Position numbers and translations under genes: made by a program. A stretch of DNA of 64,000 bases from NCBI GenBank assembly GCA_030529945.1, contig JAUMVX010000002.1, positions 17,160 through 81,159 on the forward strand. Direction: 5' to 3'. Origin of the DNA: Bacteroidia bacterium. Its GTDB lineage: Bacteria > Bacteroidota > Bacteroidia > Bacteroidales > UBA932. Below the pieces are notes generated by a model, which saw only the letters and a list, made by a program, of their open reading frames with translations, searched no databases and was not told the DNA's origin. Below, piece by piece: positions 5,612 through 58,969 of this stretch. Position 1 is the stretch's first letter, and every line of letters starts with the position of its first letter.

Positions 5612-5784
5612 TCCGGTAAGGATGAAATAGTCACGCCGTGAAGGGTTTTCGTGGCTTAATCCGTTTGTGAAGAAGGAGTGTACCGGGGTACACGACTGAT
5701 GAACAGATGGAGTCAGGCCGGAAAGACGAGCGGCTACAGATAGAACTCCCGGGTCAGAGCGACATACTCGTCAGTCCGGGAGTT
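5612..5784 (+). ncRNA. Candidate SRP-like RNA (Bacteroidales type)
   Basis: AGT-CAGG-CCGGAAAGACG-AGCG-GCT at 5711-5735 resembles SRP helix 8 (GGU-CAGG-UCCGGAAGGA-AGCA-GCC). Upstream helices: GGAT/ATCC, GTCACG/CGTGGC, GTGTAC/GTACAC. Family assignment is from recall and unverified; ends are approximate. Confidence 0.45.
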
Positions 5785-29768: not shown

Positions 29769-30650
29769 ATGTTGCCGATCGTAACAGTAAAAGCCGAACT
29801 TACGGCTGAGGATTGCCTCCGCATCGTGGAGCGCCATAAAAGAACATTCACCTACCCCATCCACCGCCACACGACGGTGGAACTGAACTTCGTGCAGCAC
29901 GGCAAGGGCGTGCGCAGGATAGTGAGGGACAGCAGCGAAGTGATCGGAGAGTACGACCTGTCCCTTATCGGCGAGAACGTGGAGCACGTATGGGAGCAGG
30001 GCGAGTGCAGCTCCTCCGATGTCCGCGAAATCACCATACACTTCTCCGCAAACCTTTTCGACGGGAATTTCATCGGGAAGAAACAGTTCGCCTCCATCAG
30101 GAAGATGCTCGAGAATTCCCGGCACGGACTGGTGTGGGGGATGGACACCATAATGGAGGTTTACAGTCTGCTGAACGCTCTCGCCTCCGAGCAGAACGGA
30201 TTCGAGCAGTTCCTGCTGTTCCAGAAGATGCTTCATATACTGTCGAACTCTCCGTCCCGGCAGCTCACTTCAAGTCCCGAGCCCAAGGCGGTTTCTCCGG
30301 CAACTCAGGAGAATGATCCGATAGCCCTCGTGGCGGAGTATCTCAAGGACCATTACACCAGCGAGGAGGTGAACCTCACATACCTGTCCAGACTTGCGGG
30401 GATGAGTCCGACCGCGCTCAGCCGCGTGTTCAAACAGAAAAAGGGCATCACCCTGTCCGCTTACCTCATAGACTTGAAACTCCAGAACGCCGCGCGCCGC
30501 CTCATAGATACGGACGAGAAGGTCGCGGACATCTGCAAGTCCTGCGGATTCAACAACCTGTCGAATTTCAACCGCACCTTCAAGGCCCGCAAAGGCAAGA
30601 CCCCGAAAGATTACCGCAGTCTCTACAAGAAGAATAAAATCACCGTCTGA
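29769..30650 (+). CDS. AraC-family transcriptional regulator (cupin-type N-terminus)
   Basis: YPIHRH...ELNF; C-terminal double HTH ending GFNNLSNFNRTFKARKGKTPKDYR. Confidence 0.92.
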   Translation: MLPIVTVKAELTAEDCLRIVERHKRTFTYPIHRHTTVELNFVQHGKGVRRIVRDSSEVIGEYDLSLIGENVEHVWEQGECSSSDVREITIHFSANLFDGNFIGKKQFASIRKMLENSRHGLVWGMDTIMEVYSLLNALASEQNGFEQFLLFQKMLHILSNSPSRQLTSSPEPKAVSPATQENDPIALVAEYLKDHYTSEEVNLTYLSRLAGMSPTALSRVFKQKKGITLSAYLIDLKLQNAARRLIDTDEKVADICKSCGFNNLSNFNRTFKARKGKTPKDYRSLYKKNKITV

Positions 30651-32179
30651 TGAAACACACCTTCCCCATTATGGCCGCAGTCCTGGCCTGTGCCGTCTCC
30701 TGTACGGACAGTAAAGTGAATACCCTCGACATAATTCCCTGTCCTCTGGAGATGACTCCCGCATCCGGGGTTTACGACCTGTCCCGGGGAGAGGTGACAT
30801 TCACGATAGACAGCCTGATGGCCCCCGAGGCCTACACCCTCAAGATTACGCCCCGGAAAGCCGTGGTGAAAGCCGGAAGCGAGGCGGGCGTTCTCTATGC
30901 CCGGCAGACTCTGAAACAGATCACAGTCGAGGACGGAGGAGCGCTGCAGTGCTGCGAAATTTCGGATGAGCCGCGCTTCGCCTGGCGCGGACTGCTGCTC
31001 GACTGCGCAAGGCATTTCTACACTGTCGAGCAGGTGAAGAAAGTCCTCGACATAATGGCTTACTATAAGCTGAACCGCTTCCACTGGCATCTGACGGATG
31101 ACCACGGATGGCGGATAGAGATAAAGAAACATCCGCGCCTTGTGGAGGTCGGGGCTTTCGGAGATGTCGGTTCACATTCAGTCCCGGACCCCAATCTTGT
31201 GGGCGAAATCCTCTACGAGGGCTATTACACGCAGGAAGACATCAGAGAGGTCGTCTCCTATGCATCGTCCCTGGGCATAAGCGTGATTCCGGAGATAGAT
31301 ATGCCCGGACATATGACTTCCGCGCTCGCCGCATATCCTCAGCTCGGCTGCACCGGAGGACCCTACAAGGTGGTCAATGTCGTGGGGCCGCGCGGCAAGG
31401 GGCTGGGCAAGGAGAACCTGTGCATCGGGAACGATGAGATCTTCGACTTCATCTCCGACATTCTCGACGAGGTCTTTCCTCTTTTCCCGGGCGAATACTT
31501 CCACATAGGCGGGGACGAGTGCGTGCCGGACAGATGGAACGCCTGTCCGAAATGCCGCAAACGCCTCCGCGACGAGGGTCTGGAGAGCGGGGAGTACTCG
31601 GACGCGCAGCTGCTCCAGAATTATTTCACCCGCAGGGTGCAGAAGATGCTTCAGGAGCGGGGGCGCAAGATAATCGGCTGGGATGAGATTCTGGACGGAG
31701 AGCTGGAGGACGGCGCCACGATTATGTCCTGGAGAGGGACTTCGGGAGGAAAGCGTGCGGCGGAGCGCGGACTGGACGCTATTATGACCCCTATCCGCCA
31801 CTGCTATCTGGATTTTCGCCAGAGCGATGACCTCGAGCACGAGCCTATCGCGCTGAACGGAACAGTTTCCGTGGATTCAGTCTATGATTACGAGCCGCTC
31901 GAGGGGCTCACGGAAGAGGCCGCCCGCCATATCATAGGCGTGCAGGGCAATCTCTGGTGCGACGTGGTTTCCACGCAGGAATACCTGGAATATATGCTTC
32001 TGCCGCGTCTGGCAGCCCTGAGCGAAGTCCAGTGGTGCGCTCCGCAGAACAAGAACCGCGAGAGGTTCCGCTCCGCTATGGACGCTCATCGCCGCTACTA
32101 CGAGGAGCACGGCTACGTCTATGCCAAGCACCTCTGGGGCATCATCGGCCTGCCGGGCCACGAGTACCGCATTCAGTAA
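30650..32179 (+). CDS. GH20 beta-N-acetylhexosaminidase (probable lipoprotein)
   Basis: PRFAWRGLLLDCARHF, FHWHLTDDHGWR, PEIDMPGH, HIGGDEC catalytic DE; TGATG overlap with AraC. Confidence 0.93.
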   Translation: MKHTFPIMAAVLACAVSCTDSKVNTLDIIPCPLEMTPASGVYDLSRGEVTFTIDSLMAPEAYTLKITPRKAVVKAGSEAGVLYARQTLKQITVEDGGALQCCEISDEPRFAWRGLLLDCARHFYTVEQVKKVLDIMAYYKLNRFHWHLTDDHGWRIEIKKHPRLVEVGAFGDVGSHSVPDPNLVGEILYEGYYTQEDIREVVSYASSLGISVIPEIDMPGHMTSALAAYPQLGCTGGPYKVVNVVGPRGKGLGKENLCIGNDEIFDFISDILDEVFPLFPGEYFHIGGDECVPDRWNACPKCRKRLRDEGLESGEYSDAQLLQNYFTRRVQKMLQERGRKIIGWDEILDGELEDGATIMSWRGTSGGKRAAERGLDAIMTPIRHCYLDFRQSDDLEHEPIALNGTVSVDSVYDYEPLEGLTEEAARHIIGVQGNLWCDVVSTQEYLEYMLLPRLAALSEVQWCAPQNKNRERFRSAMDAHRRYYEEHGYVYAKHLWGIIGLPGHEYRIQ

Positions 32180-32221: not shown

Positions 32222-32259
32222 TAAAAGATTAGGCGACACCCTTCCCCAAAGGTGTCGCC
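32222..32259 (-). terminator. Intrinsic terminator of the candidate sRNA (may also end the GH20 transcript)
   Basis: Minus strand GGCGACACCTTT-gggg-AAGGGTGTCGCC-TAATCTTTT. Confidence 0.7.
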
Positions 32260-32311
32260 CGGTATATAAAACGAACTTAACAAATAGACACGAAATGATG
32301 TTTCAAATGTC
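32222..32311 (-). ncRNA. Candidate trans-acting small RNA (~90 nt)
   Basis: Own promoter (TACATTTG at 32324-32317, TTG 19 nt upstream), AU-rich 5' part with no ATG, and a 12-bp terminator hairpin with U-tract. Confidence 0.55.
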
Positions 32312-32502
32312 CACTGCAAATGTAGGCACTATTTTTTAATATCCAAGCTTTTTCTTTCGAAATTTTAAAACGATTTTCACTTAAAATTTTTAACCCGTTG
32401 AAAGACTTCACTATATATCGAAAAGTTTTTTTCGTTTCAAGCGTTATTTTTCGCCCGACCCTCGGGAGACTCCGGCGGTGGGGTTGAAAAATGTTGTATT
32501 AT

Positions 32503-32563: not shown

Positions 32564-35080
32564 ATGGGTACGCTCAGGAATCTGCTCGTGACGGCGCTGC
32601 TCGCAGCGTCCGCCGCTTTTTCAGCCGCCGCAGGCGAATGGATACGCATAAACCAGGTCGGTTATCTTCCGAACGCCTCTAAGGTCGCAGTCTATATCAG
32701 CAACTCTCCGCAGCCGCGTGAAGTCACTTCGTTCACGGTAATCGACGCGGCAACCGGCGGGACCGTTTACATTTCCGCCCCCGGTGACATCCGCAATACC
32801 GGAGCCACAGGAGAGCTTACCGCTACATTCAGACTGAATTTTTCTCCCCTGACCGCCGAGGGAACTTATTATCTGGTGGCGGACGGGGTCAGATCCCCGG
32901 AAATCAGAATCGGCACCCGCGTCTATGACGGCTCCGCCGATTTCGTCCTCAACTATATGCGTCAGCAGCGCTGCGGATGGAATCCGTTTATGAAGGACAG
33001 CTGCCACGTCCACGACGGCTACATCCGCTATCATCCGGAAAAGGAAGGGCAGCACATAGACGTGCGCGGCGGCTGGCACGACGCTTCTGACTGTCTTCAG
33101 TACACCACCACCTCCGCGAATGCCATCTACCAGATGATGTTCGCCTATCAGCAGAATCCGGAAGCCTTCGGTGACGAATACCTCTCGGACGGGACTCCGG
33201 GCAGCAACGGCATTCCGGACATCGTGGATGAAATCTATTGGGGACTCGACTGGCTCGACAGGATGAATCCCGAGCCGGGCGAATTCTATAACCAGATAGC
33301 CGATGACCGCGACCACGTGGGTATGCGCTTCCCGGCACGGGACCACGCCGATTACGGCTGGGGTCCGAACAACGGGCGCCCCGTTTACTTCATCACCGGC
33401 GAGCCTCAGCAGAGATACAAGGGACTGAACGCCACTCAGGGCGCGGCCAGCACCGTCGGCAAGTTCGCCTCCGACTTCGCCCTCGGCGCGAAGATCCTCG
33501 CGCCGTTCTATCCGGAATTCGCCGCGAAGATAGGCGCTAAGGCTGCGGACGCCTATCAACTGGGCATAGACAAGCCGGGAGCCTGCCAGACAGCGTCCGT
33601 TGTCTCTCCTTATATATATGAGGAAGACAATTGGGTGGATGATATGGAGCTCGGAGCCGTGGAAATGTACCACAGGACAGCGGACGAGAGATACCTCGCC
33701 CAGGCTATCGAATACGCCCGCCGGGAACCGGTCACGCCGTGGATGGGGGCCGACAGCGCAAGGCACTACCAGTGGTATCCGTTTATGAATATGGGGCATT
33801 ACCATCTCGCGAAGGACGGTAACGCTAAAGTCTCCCGGGAATTCATCCGCAATATCCGCTCGGGCATCTCCCGTACTTTCGAGAAGGCTGACGGAACCCC
33901 GTTCCTCTACGGCATCCCGTCCATCTGGTGCTCGAATAACCTGACCACCGCTATGCTCACCCAGTGCATCCTCTACCGTCAGCTGACCGGCGACGAGACC
34001 TATAAGGAGATGGAAGGCGCACTGCGTGACTGGCTTATGGGCTGCAACCCTTGGGGTGTATGTATGATAGTGGAACTGCCCGGCGCGGCGGTCTATCCGA
34101 CCCAGCCGCATTCGTTCATTCCCAAGTTCGCTCTGGGCAACACCACCGGCGGCCTCGTGGACGGTCCTGTTTACCCGACCATATTCGAGAGCCTGAAGGG
34201 TGTGAATATGGAAGGCGGCATAAACTATATGGAGGTGCAGCCGGGCGTGATGGTCTATCACGACAGCATTCACGACTACTCCACGAATGAGCCGACTATG
34301 GACGGTACGGCATCCCTTACCTTCCCTCTCTCGGCCTACGAAAAGGAAGGCGCACAGCTGCGCGGCATAGTGGAAGATGAAAACGGGGTGGTCACCCGCG
34401 TGAACACCGGCGAGAAGAAAGTGTACCTCGTCTTCACGGCACATTTCAGCACGGGGGACAAGGGGCGTTTCGAGAATTTCGACGGAGTGGTACCTGTACT
34501 GAACACATTGAAGGCCAAGGGAGTGAAGGGCTCCTTCTTCCCTACGGGAGAGTGCTTCCGCCAGAGCAGATACAGAAATGCCATAAAGCGCATCATCCGC
34601 GAGGGCCACTATCTCTCGGCTCACTCCGACAAGCACTTGCAGCTCTGCAGCGGGAAGCGCAGTCTCGTGACCGCCGATTCGCTCATCCGCGACATCCGCA
34701 ATATGGAAGCCGAACTTGGCTCCTTCGGCCTGGAGAAAGCACAGTACAGCTGGATGATTCCTCCGTACGAGAGCTGCGACGCCTTCTCCGCCTATATACT
34801 TAAAGGTCTGGGATACAAGCTTGTGAATCCTACTCCGGGCCTCGTGACAAGCCACGACTGGATGGGACCGGACTCTCCGTCCTATCTGAGCGCCGCGACT
34901 ATGGTGCAGAACATCAAGGACTTCGATGAGAGCTACGGACTGAACGGAGCCGTCATCCTCATACACGCGATGAATTATCCGGACAGGTCCGCGGACGACC
35001 GGGTCTATAGCCATCTGGACGAAATCATCGACTACCTGCGCGGACGCGGATATGATTTCGGTACTTTCAAGGAACTATAG
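32564..35080 (+). CDS. Secreted GH9 glycoside hydrolase fused to a C-terminal CE4/NodB-like polysaccharide deacetylase
   Basis: Signal peptide from 32564; WIRINQVGY, GGWHDASD, TNEPTMD (GH9); HSDKH, PPY, SHDW, ILIH (CE4-like). Confidence 0.85.
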   Translation: MGTLRNLLVTALLAASAAFSAAAGEWIRINQVGYLPNASKVAVYISNSPQPREVTSFTVIDAATGGTVYISAPGDIRNTGATGELTATFRLNFSPLTAEGTYYLVADGVRSPEIRIGTRVYDGSADFVLNYMRQQRCGWNPFMKDSCHVHDGYIRYHPEKEGQHIDVRGGWHDASDCLQYTTTSANAIYQMMFAYQQNPEAFGDEYLSDGTPGSNGIPDIVDEIYWGLDWLDRMNPEPGEFYNQIADDRDHVGMRFPARDHADYGWGPNNGRPVYFITGEPQQRYKGLNATQGAASTVGKFASDFALGAKILAPFYPEFAAKIGAKAADAYQLGIDKPGACQTASVVSPYIYEEDNWVDDMELGAVEMYHRTADERYLAQAIEYARREPVTPWMGADSARHYQWYPFMNMGHYHLAKDGNAKVSREFIRNIRSGISRTFEKADGTPFLYGIPSIWCSNNLTTAMLTQCILYRQLTGDETYKEMEGALRDWLMGCNPWGVCMIVELPGAAVYPTQPHSFIPKFALGNTTGGLVDGPVYPTIFESLKGVNMEGGINYMEVQPGVMVYHDSIHDYSTNEPTMDGTASLTFPLSAYEKEGAQLRGIVEDENGVVTRVNTGEKKVYLVFTAHFSTGDKGRFENFDGVVPVLNTLKAKGVKGSFFPTGECFRQSRYRNAIKRIIREGHYLSAHSDKHLQLCSGKRSLVTADSLIRDIRNMEAELGSFGLEKAQYSWMIPPYESCDAFSAYILKGLGYKLVNPTPGLVTSHDWMGPDSPSYLSAATMVQNIKDFDESYGLNGAVILIHAMNYPDRSADDRVYSHLDEIIDYLRGRGYDFGTFKEL

Positions 35081-50386: not shown

Positions 50387-51313
50387 CTACGAACTCCGGT
50401 ATTCCGAAGGTGTCAGACCGGTATGGGCCTTGAAGAATTTATAGAATACCGACTGGTTCGGGAAGTTCAGTTTATAGACTATCTCCTTGATGGACAGCTC
50501 GGAATATTTCAGCAGATTCTTCGCCTCCATAATCACGAAGGCGTCGATCCATTCCGGAGCGGAACGGCCGGTCTGGGCCTTCACGAGCTTGGAGAGGTAT
50601 TTGGGGCTCAGGCAGAGCTTGTCGGCGTAGAAGCTCATACTCCTCTCTTCGTTATGATGTTCCACCACCAGTTTTATGAAGGCGTCGGAAGTCATCTTCG
50701 AGCGCACGCTGCCTCTGTCCGCAGTCTTGCGGGCTTCTGAAATCTTTTCCGTCCACAGGTTCCCGAGATAATAGAATACGGACGAAACCAGATAGCGAAG
50801 GGCGTCGCGCGAGCGGGAGGCTCCGCTGTGGATAAGCTGCCCCGCTATCCTCATATACATCCGGCACATATCGAACTCTTCCTGGCTGAGGGTGATGCAC
50901 GGGTTGTCCAGAATGCTGTTGCTCTCACGGTACAGGCTGTTGAAATCCAGACGGATAGTCGTCAGGAATTCGGGAGACATAGCCATTATCACGATGTCCA
51001 CGTCCCGGATCTTATCCTCATCGGCCGGCTTCACGCGGCAGATGTTCCCCGGAGTGTTTATGACCAGAGTCCCCCGGCGGACGGTGAAAGCCTTGAGGTT
51101 CACCTCCAGGTCGATGTCGCTCCCCAGACAGAAATAAGCCATATAGCCGTTGAATCTGAAAGGCTTCTTCAGGAACTGCATCCTGTCATCCGATAGAATC
51201 CCGGAACCTGTCAGATGCGAAATGATGAAGTCGTCTGACAGACTGTCCACCTTGTCAGCCGGGAAGAGGGACTTCAATCCCTTGATGTCCAATGTAAATA
51301 GAGAATCAGCCAT
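50387..51313 (-). CDS. AraC-family transcriptional regulator, divergent from the TolC operon
   Basis: FYADKLCLSPKYLSKLVK...SIKEIVYKLNFPNQSVFYKFFKAHTGLTPSEYR. Confidence 0.92.
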   Translation of the reverse strand: MADSLFTLDIKGLKSLFPADKVDSLSDDFIISHLTGSGILSDDRMQFLKKPFRFNGYMAYFCLGSDIDLEVNLKAFTVRRGTLVINTPGNICRVKPADEDKIRDVDIVIMAMSPEFLTTIRLDFNSLYRESNSILDNPCITLSQEEFDMCRMYMRIAGQLIHSGASRSRDALRYLVSSVFYYLGNLWTEKISEARKTADRGSVRSKMTSDAFIKLVVEHHNEERSMSFYADKLCLSPKYLSKLVKAQTGRSAPEWIDAFVIMEAKNLLKYSELSIKEIVYKLNFPNQSVFYKFFKAHTGLTPSEYRSS

Positions 51314-56520: not shown

Positions 56521-56703
56521 GTCCTTTCGGGAATCGGGTATCTGCGCGGAAAAGCGCAAATATTCAGTTTTTGACACCAAAAGTTCACCAAGTTCGTTTT
56601 TTTGCGTAACTTAGTGGACTTTTTGGTAGTTTGTCGCGGACGGGCCGCCCCGAATGGCCCTCCGGGAGACCGCAGACTCCCGTAACGGTGTATATACTAA
56701 CTA

Positions 56704-57999
56704 ATGATTAAGGATATGACTAAAAAACAGACCAATGTCGTGGCGATCGTGACGATGTGCTTCATCTTCGCTATGATATCCTTCGTTACCAATATGGCCG
56801 CCCCGTTCGGTAACATCTGGAAGGGAAACTACAGCTGGGCGGGAATGATGGGCAATATGATGAACTTCGCCGCCTATCTCTTTATGGGTATCCCCGCAGG
56901 CAAGATGCTGGTGAAGGTCGGATATAAGAAGACCACCCTCATCGCCCTCGCGGTAGGCTTCATAGGAATGACGATCCAGTGGCTCTCCAGCCGCGCCTTC
57001 CTCGGCGGCTCGGCGATATATGTCTATCTGCTCGGCGCATTCATCTGCGGTTTCTGCGTATGTATGCTCAACACCGTCGTGAACCCTATGCTGAACATCC
57101 TCGGCGGCGGCGGCAACAGGGGTAACCAGTACATCCAGATCGGAGGCACTATGAACTCCCTCGCCGGCACCCTCACTCCGCTTCTCGTCGGTCTTCTCAT
57201 CGGCACCGTTTCCGCCGAAACCAGAATGAGCGATGTCGCCCCTCTGCTTTTCATCGCGATGGGCGTATTCGCCGTGGCGTTCATCATCATTTCTTTCGTA
57301 AGCATTCCGGAGCCGGCCGCAGAGCGCAAGAATGTCAAGTACGAGCACAGCGCCTGGAGTTTCCGCCACTGCGTCCTCGGTATCGTGGGCATCTTCTTCT
57401 ATGTGGGCATCGAGGTGGGTATCCCGGCTCAGCTTAACTTCTACCTCTCCGACCCTTCCGAAAGGGGTGCCGGCATCCTTCTGAACGGAGCCGCCATCGG
57501 CGGCGCCATAGCGGCTGTCTACTGGCTGCTTATGATGGTGGGCCGCATCTGCAGTTCGGCCATCTCCGGAAAGGTGAGTACCCGTACCCAGCTCATAGCC
57601 GTATCTTCGCTTGCCATCGCGCTTGTGGTCATCGCCATCTTCCTTCCGAAGACGGTCACCGTCTCTATGCCGGGCTATAGCGCCGGCGAGGGCTTCGCTA
57701 TGTTCCAGGTTCCGGCGAGCGCGCTTCTGCTCGTCCTCTGCGGTCTTTGCACCTCACTGATGTGGGGCGGCATCTTCAATCTTTCCACAGAAGGCCTGGG
57801 CAAATACACCGAGCAGGCTTCAGGCATCTTTATGATGATGGTGGTCGGCGGCGGCATAATGCCTCTCATCCAGGAATTCCTCGCCGGCAAGGTCGGCTAT
57901 ATGGGTTCATACTGGCTTGTGGTGGCGATGCTCGCCTACATCCTCTATTACGCCCTCATCGGCTGCAGAAACGTGAATAAGGACATCCCTACAGAATAG
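56704..57999 (+). CDS. FucP/NagP-like MFS sugar:H+ symporter (start may be 56716)
   Basis: FAMISFVTNM, KVGYKKT, VNPMLNILG, FFYVGIEVG, WGGIFNL, GLGKYTEQASG. Confidence 0.88.
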   Translation: MIKDMTKKQTNVVAIVTMCFIFAMISFVTNMAAPFGNIWKGNYSWAGMMGNMMNFAAYLFMGIPAGKMLVKVGYKKTTLIALAVGFIGMTIQWLSSRAFLGGSAIYVYLLGAFICGFCVCMLNTVVNPMLNILGGGGNRGNQYIQIGGTMNSLAGTLTPLLVGLLIGTVSAETRMSDVAPLLFIAMGVFAVAFIIISFVSIPEPAAERKNVKYEHSAWSFRHCVLGIVGIFFYVGIEVGIPAQLNFYLSDPSERGAGILLNGAAIGGAIAAVYWLLMMVGRICSSAISGKVSTRTQLIAVSSLAIALVVIAIFLPKTVTVSMPGYSAGEGFAMFQVPASALLLVLCGLCTSLMWGGIFNLSTEGLGKYTEQASGIFMMMVVGGGIMPLIQEFLAGKVGYMGSYWLVVAMLAYILYYALIGCRNVNKDIPTE

Positions 58000-58006
58000 C
58001 TATAAT

Positions 58007-58969
58007 ATGGAAAAACAGTACGTAGTCGGTATCGACGTAGGTGGACAGACCACCAAGATAGGAGTTGTGGATGCGCGCGGAGACGTGCTCGCGCAGTCGG
58101 TAATCCGCTCCGACATTTATGGAGAAGACGCTTCGGCTTATGTGGACGCTCTCGCTGCGGCGGTGAAGGCTGTGGTCGCAGACTCCGGAAAGACCGAAGA
58201 GATTCGCGGCATCGGCGTAGGCGCTCCTAACGGGAACTACTATACCGGAACCATCGCTTTCGCACCGAACCTCGTCTGGGCGGCGAAGGGCACCGTGGAT
58301 TTCGCCAAGATGCTTTCCGCGCGTCTGGAAGGTATGCCTGTCTCCCTCACGAACGACGCGAATGCGGCGGCTGTGGGTGAGATGACCTACGGCGTGGCCA
58401 GAGGTATGAAGAATTTCATTATGATCACCCTCGGCACGGGAGTCGGCAGCGGTATCGTGATAAACGGCCAGGTGGTTTACGGCTTCGACGGCTTCGCCGG
58501 CGAGCTGGGACATACGAATGCTGTCCGTTATAACGGGCGTGCCTGCGGCTGCGGCCGGACAGGCTGTCTGGAGGCTTACTGCTCCGCTATGGGCGTGGCC
58601 CGTACGGCCCGCGAGTGGCTTGAGTCCGGCACTGAGCCTTCCCTTCTGAGGGACGTGGAGAATATTACATCGAAGGATGTCTATGATGCCGCGAAGCAGG
58701 GCGATGCTCTCGCCATCAGAGTGTTCCAGTACACGGGACGCATTCTGGGCCGCTCTTTCGCGGATTTCGTGGCGTTCAGCGCTCCGGAGGCCATCGTTCT
58801 CTTCGGAGGACTGGCCAGGGCCAAGGAGTTCCTCTATCAGCCTATGGTGGAGGCTATGGACGAGAACCTTCTTAAAATCTGGAAGGGAAAAATCAAGATA
58901 GTCTTCTCCCAGCTCAAGGAGTCCGACGCCGCCATCCTCGGTGCGTCCGCCCTCGCCTGGGAACTTTAG
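58007..58969 (+). CDS. ROK-family sugar kinase (RokA/glucokinase-like)
   Basis: GIDVGG, NDANAAAVGE, LGTGVGSG, ELGH, CGCGRTGCLEAY. Confidence 0.92.
   Translation: MEKQYVVGIDVGGQTTKIGVVDARGDVLAQSVIRSDIYGEDASAYVDALAAAVKAVVADSGKTEEIRGIGVGAPNGNYYTGTIAFAPNLVWAAKGTVDFAKMLSARLEGMPVSLTNDANAAAVGEMTYGVARGMKNFIMITLGTGVGSGIVINGQVVYGFDGFAGELGHTNAVRYNGRACGCGRTGCLEAYCSAMGVARTAREWLESGTEPSLLRDVENITSKDVYDAAKQGDALAIRVFQYTGRILGRSFADFVAFSAPEAIVLFGGLARAKEFLYQPMVEAMDENLLKIWKGKIKIVFSQLKESDAAILGASALAWEL

Follow-up and report, generated by a model that had tools for sequence, protein, structure and literature searches.

An intergenic stretch of an uncultured Bacteroidales genome carries on its minus strand a small RNA (sRNA) gene that probably encodes a free-standing, trans-acting base-pairing regulator, whose seed would pair with the start regions of glnN and of the arginine operon and would most likely block translation initiation there. 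The gene lies near the middle of the window, by which we mean the whole stretch of 64,000 nucleotides that was analysed. It is a conserved gene, far beyond what chance would produce, and it is restricted to the uncultured Bacteroidales genus Candidatus Cryptobacteroides. Across that genus, complementarity between the seed and mRNA start regions tracks the presence of the sRNA for both glnN and the arginine operon, among genomes that also share phylogeny. Transcription of the gene, pairing inside the cell and a repressive effect on the paired mRNAs are what we infer from these observations.

Anatomy and conservation of the sRNA gene

Read along the minus strand, the gene consists of cTTG (32346-32344), a spacer of 19 nt, the box TACATTTG (32324-32317), CAGTG, GGACAUUUGAAACAUCAUUUCGUGUCUAUUUGUUAAGUUCGUUUUAUAUACC, a hairpin of 13 pairs (32260-32231) and AAUCUUUUAU. 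Its parts, with the evidence on which each was placed, are the following.

32344-32346, minus strand: -33 promoter element cTTG (read from the sequence; TTTG in most relatives)
32317-32324, minus strand: -7 promoter box TACATTTG, of the Bacteroidota form TAnnTTTG (read from the sequence and from the copies of relatives)
32223-32312, minus strand: predicted sRNA transcript of about 90 nt (covariance model and fold; 5' end placed from the promoter, 3' end from the U-tract)
32286-32312, minus strand: 5' hairpin of 27 nt, GGACAU...loop...GUGUCU (fold and alignment)
about 32262-32289, minus strand: single-stranded AU-rich seed GUCUAUUUGUUAAGUUCGUUUUAUAUAC (fold and alignment)
32264-32283, minus strand: 20 bases inside the seed that are invariant in 67 aligned species, most of them retrieved by this very sequence
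32222-32260, minus strand: intrinsic terminator, a 13-bp stem (32260-32231) followed by a U-tract (terminator scan)

The initial annotation had proposed an unannotated, free-standing small RNA gene at this place, and the sequence bears this out, with a dedicated promoter, a conserved segment left exposed and an intrinsic terminator. The minus-strand promoter that it described, TTG-N19-TACATTTG, is borne out by the reading of the sequence and by conservation in relatives. This promoter is of the sigma-ABfr type, for which the consensus in Bacteroides is TTTG at -33 and TAnnTTTG at -7 (PMC7366714). A scan for sigma-70 promoters returned no match, as expected for Bacteroidota, and is uninformative. 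The hairpin and U-tract were recovered by the terminator scan, which counts 13 bp in the stem where 12 had been given, 7 of them G-C, with a 4-nt GGGG loop and the tail AATCTTTTAT; on the plus strand no T-run follows the stem, and the terminator is therefore scored for the minus strand alone. The approximately 55 unstructured nucleotides that had been placed ahead of this terminator turn out to be of two kinds. The first 27 nt (32312-32286, with GGACA beginning at 32312) fold as a hairpin that is kept in relatives, and the description holds for about 32289-32262, which is single-stranded. Folding all 95 nt of the minus-strand RNA gives -28.9 kcal/mol (z = -3.63), a stability that none of 200 shuffles equalled.

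Conservation coincides with the limits of the gene. Of 24 congeneric genomes compared by BLAST, 13 gave matches (71-90% identity), and these run from the -7 box to the terminator only, the flanks remaining unaligned. An exact search for the 20-mer TTGTTAAGTTCGTTTTATAT, with one genome taken per species, located this invariant sequence in at least 120 species; among the matches listed, all come from Bacteroidales MAGs of gut and rumen with one copy per contig, and several bear the names Candidatus Cryptobacteroides or 'Alistipes sp. CAG:435/514'. The signals for transcription accompany the core: TAnnTTTG stands 23-38 nt before it in 126 of 134 copies from other species, among 123 distinct copies 86 have TTTG at position -33 with a constant spacing to the -7 box, and at least five U occur within 8 nt after the terminator stem in 105 of 122 copies. 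In an alignment of 67 species, 20 consecutive bases of the seed are invariant, although this invariance is partly built in, most members having been retrieved by searching that same 20-mer. A lack of conservation of the 5' segment in relatives had been named beforehand as a possible refutation of the sRNA reading; the seed segment was found to be invariant.

The paired regions covary in the same alignment, where 15 of the 18 consensus stem pairs show compensatory double changes. All 12 terminator pairs of the consensus fold vary yet stay paired, mostly through changes on both sides, around a loop region, UUGGGGA, that is conserved across species. In the 5' hairpin the base of the stem is conserved while the loop varies in both length and sequence; the outer pair is G-U, A-U or G-C, the inner pairs change on both sides, and the stem is preserved in variants such as GAACA..UGUUC and GGAUU..AUCC.

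A frame of four codons, (A/G/U)UG-UCU-AUU-UGU-UAA, recurs in nearly all copies and could point to a small protein-coding gene or to a type I toxin-antitoxin transcript. We judge this extremely improbable, because the NUG is part of the conserved stem, of which the frame is a by-product, and because conservation acts at the nucleotide level, third positions included, with indels and free variation directly after the frame. No longer frame is conserved, and the window copy contains no ATG, as had already been noted for it. A dif/Xer site or another DNA element was also considered for the core and was rejected, the core being non-palindromic and embedded in a conserved promoter-terminator unit.

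Distribution and genomic neighbourhood

Genome searches were carried out with a covariance model of the sRNA, R1, whose match to the window copy covers 32223-32314 of the minus strand and reaches 93.6 bits (E = 2.7e-17). R1 finds one copy in the genome from which the window derives. Of 196 high-quality Cryptobacteroides genomes, 111 contain the sRNA, nearly all of them only once. In the rest of the family R1 matched none of about 187 genomes, which represent 36 genera, and about 200 other genera of the order gave nothing convincing, only matches of 30-35 bits without the core, which were rejected as AU-rich stretches and terminators. Rfam 15, including its Bacteroidales and Bacteroides motifs, returned nothing at gathering score in the whole window and nothing relevant at E up to 10, the best sub-threshold match being a 27-nt frameshift hairpin model that falls on the terminator (E = 0.73). 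A literature search retrieved no paper on sRNAs of Cryptobacteroides. Judged from sequence comparison, the sRNA represents a new family within a kind already known, the intergenic sRNAs of Bacteroidota, with unusually good comparative support for its predicted targets.

The genes of the window that bear on the neighbourhood of the sRNA are these.

30650-32179, plus strand: GH20 hexosaminidase, converging on the sRNA gene
32564-35080, plus strand: GH9-CE4 fusion, diverging from the sRNA gene and followed by ROK, MFS and SIS genes
50387-51313, minus strand: best match in this genome (43% identity) to the AraC regulator that adjoins the sRNA elsewhere, 18 kb from the sRNA
56704-57999, plus strand: GluP-type MFS transporter, in an operon with a ROK kinase
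58007-58969, plus strand: ROK kinase, in an operon with the GluP-type transporter

These coordinates agree with the arrangement first described, in which the sRNA converges on GH20 and diverges from the GH9 operon. The neighbours of the sRNA differ among species, however, and the GH9 gene is shared with the two closest relatives only (L120 and L135), GH20 not being downstream even there. The commonest order, observed in about 50 of 133 loci, places an AraC regulator, the sRNA, a GluP-type MFS transporter and a ROK kinase on one strand. The AraC regulator immediately precedes the sRNA in about 50 other species and is displaced and inverted in the window, and the transporter/ROK operon, directly downstream in about 45 other species, lies 24 kb away in the window; both displaced positions are consistent with an inversion. 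In genomes that lack the sRNA, the transporter comes directly after an AMP-ligase gene with no AraC gene between them. Because the neighbours vary, and because in 53 of 118 sRNA loci, the window included, the gene downstream converges on the sRNA, the latter is intergenic and independent of its flanking genes.

The same survey bears on the possibility that the RNA is a cis-acting 5' leader or attenuator, controlling the GluP-type transporter/ROK operon through read-through of the terminator. In about 45 of 118 loci the transporter is indeed on the same strand, 70-280 nt past the terminator. Nearly half of the copies nevertheless face a convergent gene, which argues that the sRNA is not a leader, and in most of the loci that have the transporter downstream a separate promoter-like box, TAnCTT[AG]G, follows a T-run between the terminator and the transporter. 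In the window, the RNA gene is still intact at its distance from the operon. A conserved antiterminator pairing is furthermore not possible, because the terminator stem varies freely while the seed is invariant. We therefore regard a leader function as quite unlikely and favour a free-standing sRNA.

Some features of the surrounding DNA were recorded in their own right. A palindrome, ATTGCGAAATTTTGCAAT, stands just before the AraC promoter in relatives (for example L004, L009, L013 and L066) and is probably an operator for AraC autoregulation. The promoter box of the GluP-type transporter is non-consensus, in the form TAACTTAG or TAACTTGG after a T-run (56590-56620 in the window, and relatives), which suggests dependence on an activator; the transporter box of the window reads AAGTTCGTTTTTTTGCGTAACTTAG and has 11 same-sense bases in common with the sRNA core. 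The genome also contains a repeated element, about 165 bp long, that is bounded by imperfect inverted repeats of some 25 nt (AGTGATGATGAAAAAATAAGTTGGT ... ACCAAGTTATTTTTTAGGAATCACT) and encloses a GTACCGGGGTAC hairpin. It is present in about 20 copies at 96-100% identity together with fragments (for example contig 37:5270-5445 and contig 4:6330-6500 of G000), with a diverged partial copy at 5652-5731 of the window, and it looks like a recently active MITE.

Complementarity of the seed to mRNA start regions

The start regions of glnN, which encodes a type III glutamine synthetase (Pfam GSIII_N), were taken from 94 genomes of the genus, 51 with the sRNA and 43 without it. A perfect complement of the seed of at least 9 nt within -60..+24 of glnN is found in 25 of the 51 sRNA-bearing genomes versus 3 of the 43 sRNA-free ones (Fisher p = 5e-6), and the 18 strongest glnN duplexes all belong to sRNA-bearing genomes (Mann-Whitney p = 1e-4), both tests overstating independence and both p-values being optimistic because the presence of the sRNA and that of the site share phylogeny. 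Shuffled seeds give a mean of 1.1 matches in 51 genomes, and none of 500 reaches 25. The complementarity is specific to the strand: counted by orientation, the seed yields 25 reverse-complement matches, no direct match, four reverse matches and one complement match. The 25 matches are spread over ten unrelated sequence contexts and use seed nucleotides 1-13, 4-15, 10-20, 12-21, 14-25 or 17-25, all at -24..+1 from the AUG. In the genome of the window, where glnN starts at 93546 on the minus strand of contig 86, AACGAACUUA ends on the A of the glnN AUG, and AUAGAC occurs six bases on. About half of the sRNA-bearing genomes have no clear glnN site. That the whole seed of about 24 nt is frozen may be explained by this use, because different lineages would pair through different parts of it.

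A stretch of at least 20 invariant bases is long for a seed, and the conservation of the UUGGGGA terminator loop is unusual. Both features could fit a protein-binding RNA or an operator at the DNA level, with a protein bound to the core and to the GGGGA loop, the glnN motifs being sites of the same factor. In G283 and G391, two genomes that were scored as sRNA-free, the glnN leader includes 11 nt of the complement, UUAACAAAUAG, an observation that is on the side of such a factor and suggests that part of the motif may predate the sRNA or serve another purpose. On the other side, the glnN matches are strictly antisense (25 against none in the direct sense) and substitutions compatible with G-U pairing occur; RNA pairing is also favoured over a fixed protein motif because the lineages use different, partly non-overlapping parts of the core. 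Protein binding thus appears very unlikely as the function of the core, and base pairing of the sRNA remains the reading that we prefer.

The arginine operon is a second candidate target. Averaged over 20 sRNA-bearing genomes, the duplex at the start region of its first gene has an energy of -14.7 kcal/mol, compared to -11.0 +/- 1.0 for shuffles, none of 300 of which reaches the observed value; in eight sRNA-free genomes it is -10.0, versus -10.8 +/- 1.2 when shuffled. The sites at the first gene occur in at least three unrelated contexts or architectures, with one G-U-compensated variant. In the genome of the window, the first gene, whose start lies at 1670 of contig 22, has AAAACGAAC at -26 together with AAUGGAC over the AUG, argG has AACGAACUU at -12, and argH has AUAAAACGAACUUA, a perfect match of 14 nt at -15..-2 that ranks 2 of 1694 start regions, with the qualification that AACGAAC could arise by chance in the arginine leader of this clade, which is a GAAC-rich repeat. 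The start regions of argH, glnN and the first arginine-operon gene are all among the top 25 of the 1694. As a general target, argH was rejected, its 14-nt site being retained in the two closest relatives only; the argG and argH sites are limited to the clade of this genome, plus one further species for argG.

Two observations concern the arginine genes themselves. At the argE/argH junction of this genome (contig 22:8860-8920), argE is extended at its 3' end by about 30 bases that the closest sRNA-free orthologues lack; these bases lengthen ArgE by about 10 codons and hold the 14-nt seed complement ahead of argH. Separately, a conserved leader, TGCAATTGACAATCTnGGTTTGTCTTGCCGTTAGGG, is found upstream of the arginine operon in five of eight sRNA-free genomes versus 3 of 20 sRNA-bearing ones (loci L240-L242, L245, L248, L249, L262 and L263), and it may be an operator or leader that sRNA-based control replaced.

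The initial annotation had put forward a trans-acting regulator linked to GlcNAc metabolism, and of its two parts, base pairing in trans is the one that stands as most likely; the link to GlcNAc is unsupported, as synteny and pairing ranks both agree poorly with it. Under that proposal, a GlcNAc-induced or otherwise carbon-responsive sRNA would pair with the adjacent GH20, GH9-CE4, ROK, MFS, SIS and NagA mRNAs. Its place between GH20 and the GH9-CE4 operon in the window is in keeping with such a function, as is the fact that in many species the sRNA adjoins a sugar transporter/kinase operon, the transporter being weakly similar to GluP and NagP. GibS, a sugar-induced sRNA of Bacteroides, provides a precedent (PMC7366714). 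The GH9 synteny is nonetheless confined to close relatives and the GH20 gene is not kept, as described above, and the amino-sugar start regions of this genome pair poorly with the seed, at ranks 419-1660 of 1694 (GH9 1660, GH20 1640, SIS 1111, MFS 889 and ROK 457). For the MFS and ROK genes that adjoin the sRNA, start regions from 45 and 28 species show no excess of pairing over shuffled seeds (10/100 and 42/100 reach the observed value, respectively), and those of the neighbouring AraC genes are borderline (2/100 shuffles reach it) with no consistent site. Regulation of the adjacent amino-sugar genes is for these reasons unlikely.

Other candidates emerged from the genome of the window by itself. 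An acyltransferase gene (C48:42723) with 18 of 20 bases complementary over its AUG was rejected, since the site is absent in 29 orthologues, one of them 91% identical; this unconserved match illustrates how predictions from a single genome mislead. A k-mer-seeded, genome-wide duplex scan was set aside as well, being dominated by GC-rich coding matches with CGAACTT that we judged to be noise. On contig 49 (about 32760-32790), a bipartite complement of the seed, AUAUAAAAAUGGAAUUUAACAAAAUGAC, lies within a long alpha-glucan-phosphorylase-like ORF, at a position that could be a domain junction or an internal start of that ORF.

Proposed mechanism and comparison with known systems

In the mechanism that we propose, the sigma-ABfr promoter would drive synthesis of an sRNA of about 90 nt, whose transcript would end at the intrinsic terminator. 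The invariant, single-stranded 24-28 nt or so between the 5' hairpin and the terminator would act as the seed, and different parts of it would base-pair around the start codon and in the 5' leader of glnN, and likewise with the arginine operon, at the first gene in many species and also at argG and argH in the clade of the window. Repression is the direction suggested by the positions of the sites: with both the AUG and the A-rich region of ribosome loading covered by the sRNA, initiation of translation would most likely be hindered. The predicted outcome is less glutamine synthetase, less arginine synthesis and less nitrogen assimilation.

Since the sRNA so often adjoins an AraC regulator and an operon for a sugar transporter and kinase, carbon may be its input, and the sRNA would then serve to balance carbon and nitrogen. 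Tentatively, we can imagine a genus-specific link from carbon to nitrogen in which the gene arrived together with the AraC gene in front of the transporter/kinase operon, and in which the seed then recruited the glnN and arginine mRNAs lineage by lineage, in most sRNA-bearing lineages in place of the older TGCAATTGACAATCTnGGTTTGTCTTGCCGTTAGGG leader that sRNA-free genomes retain. This scenario is less likely than not; if it is true, nitrogen assimilation in Bacteroidota would for the first time have a described riboregulator, whose target sites would plainly have arisen again and again against a seed that stayed frozen.

The host is an abundant, uncultured genus of gut and rumen, the sRNA belongs to no Rfam family, and its candidate targets, type III glutamine synthetase and arginine synthesis, are central to the nitrogen economy of the gut. 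The many independent versions of the target sites facing an invariant seed amount to a natural experiment on the growth of an sRNA regulon, and they offer ready-made compensatory pairs for reporter tests. To our knowledge, targets have been established for only a small number of Bacteroidota regulatory RNAs, each of them from cultured Bacteroides.

High-confidence intergenic sRNAs of Bacteroidota have been defined by their own start site or promoter, an intrinsic terminator, an intergenic position and a detected transcript (PMC7366714, Ryan et al. 2020). The sRNA described here fits this class on its promoter, Rho-independent terminator and intergenic position, as known from sequence alone. 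The closest likeness is with GibS (BTnc035) of Bacteroides thetaiotaomicron, which is also intergenic, with a sigma-ABfr promoter (TAnnTTTG) and a Rho-independent terminator, which has an AU-rich, conserved single-stranded seed longer than typical Hfq-type seeds and predicted pairing across the start codons of metabolic mRNAs, and whose host, like that of our sRNA, lacks Hfq and ProQ (PMC7366714). The two differ in length (about 90 nt versus 145 nt for GibS), in the seed, which is internal between the 5' hairpin and the terminator here and at the unstructured 5' end in GibS, and in their targets, predicted to be glnN and arginine synthesis here and BT_0771 and BT_3893 for GibS. Because it is absent outside a genus of another family, and given its internal seed and its length, we do not consider our sRNA a relative of GibS, a separation that is drawn from the lack of convincing covariance-model matches outside the genus and from described features.

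A literature search retrieved no Bacteroides sRNA acting on glutamine synthetase and no riboregulator of nitrogen assimilation in Bacteroidota. In other phyla, NsiR4 of cyanobacteria acts on glutamine synthetase through gifA, sRNA154 of Methanosarcina is connected with glnA1 and GlnZ is known from enterobacteria, while SR1 of Bacillus affects arginine catabolism via ahrC. NsiR4 has been reviewed (PMC6316151). Our sRNA would resemble NsiR4, sRNA154, GlnZ and SR1 in the predicted post-transcriptional control of glutamine synthetase and/or arginine metabolism by an RNA; these are analogues without homology, as no Rfam family matches the sRNA. Unlike the nitrogen sRNAs of other phyla, it would have the mRNA of the type III glutamine synthetase itself as its predicted direct target.
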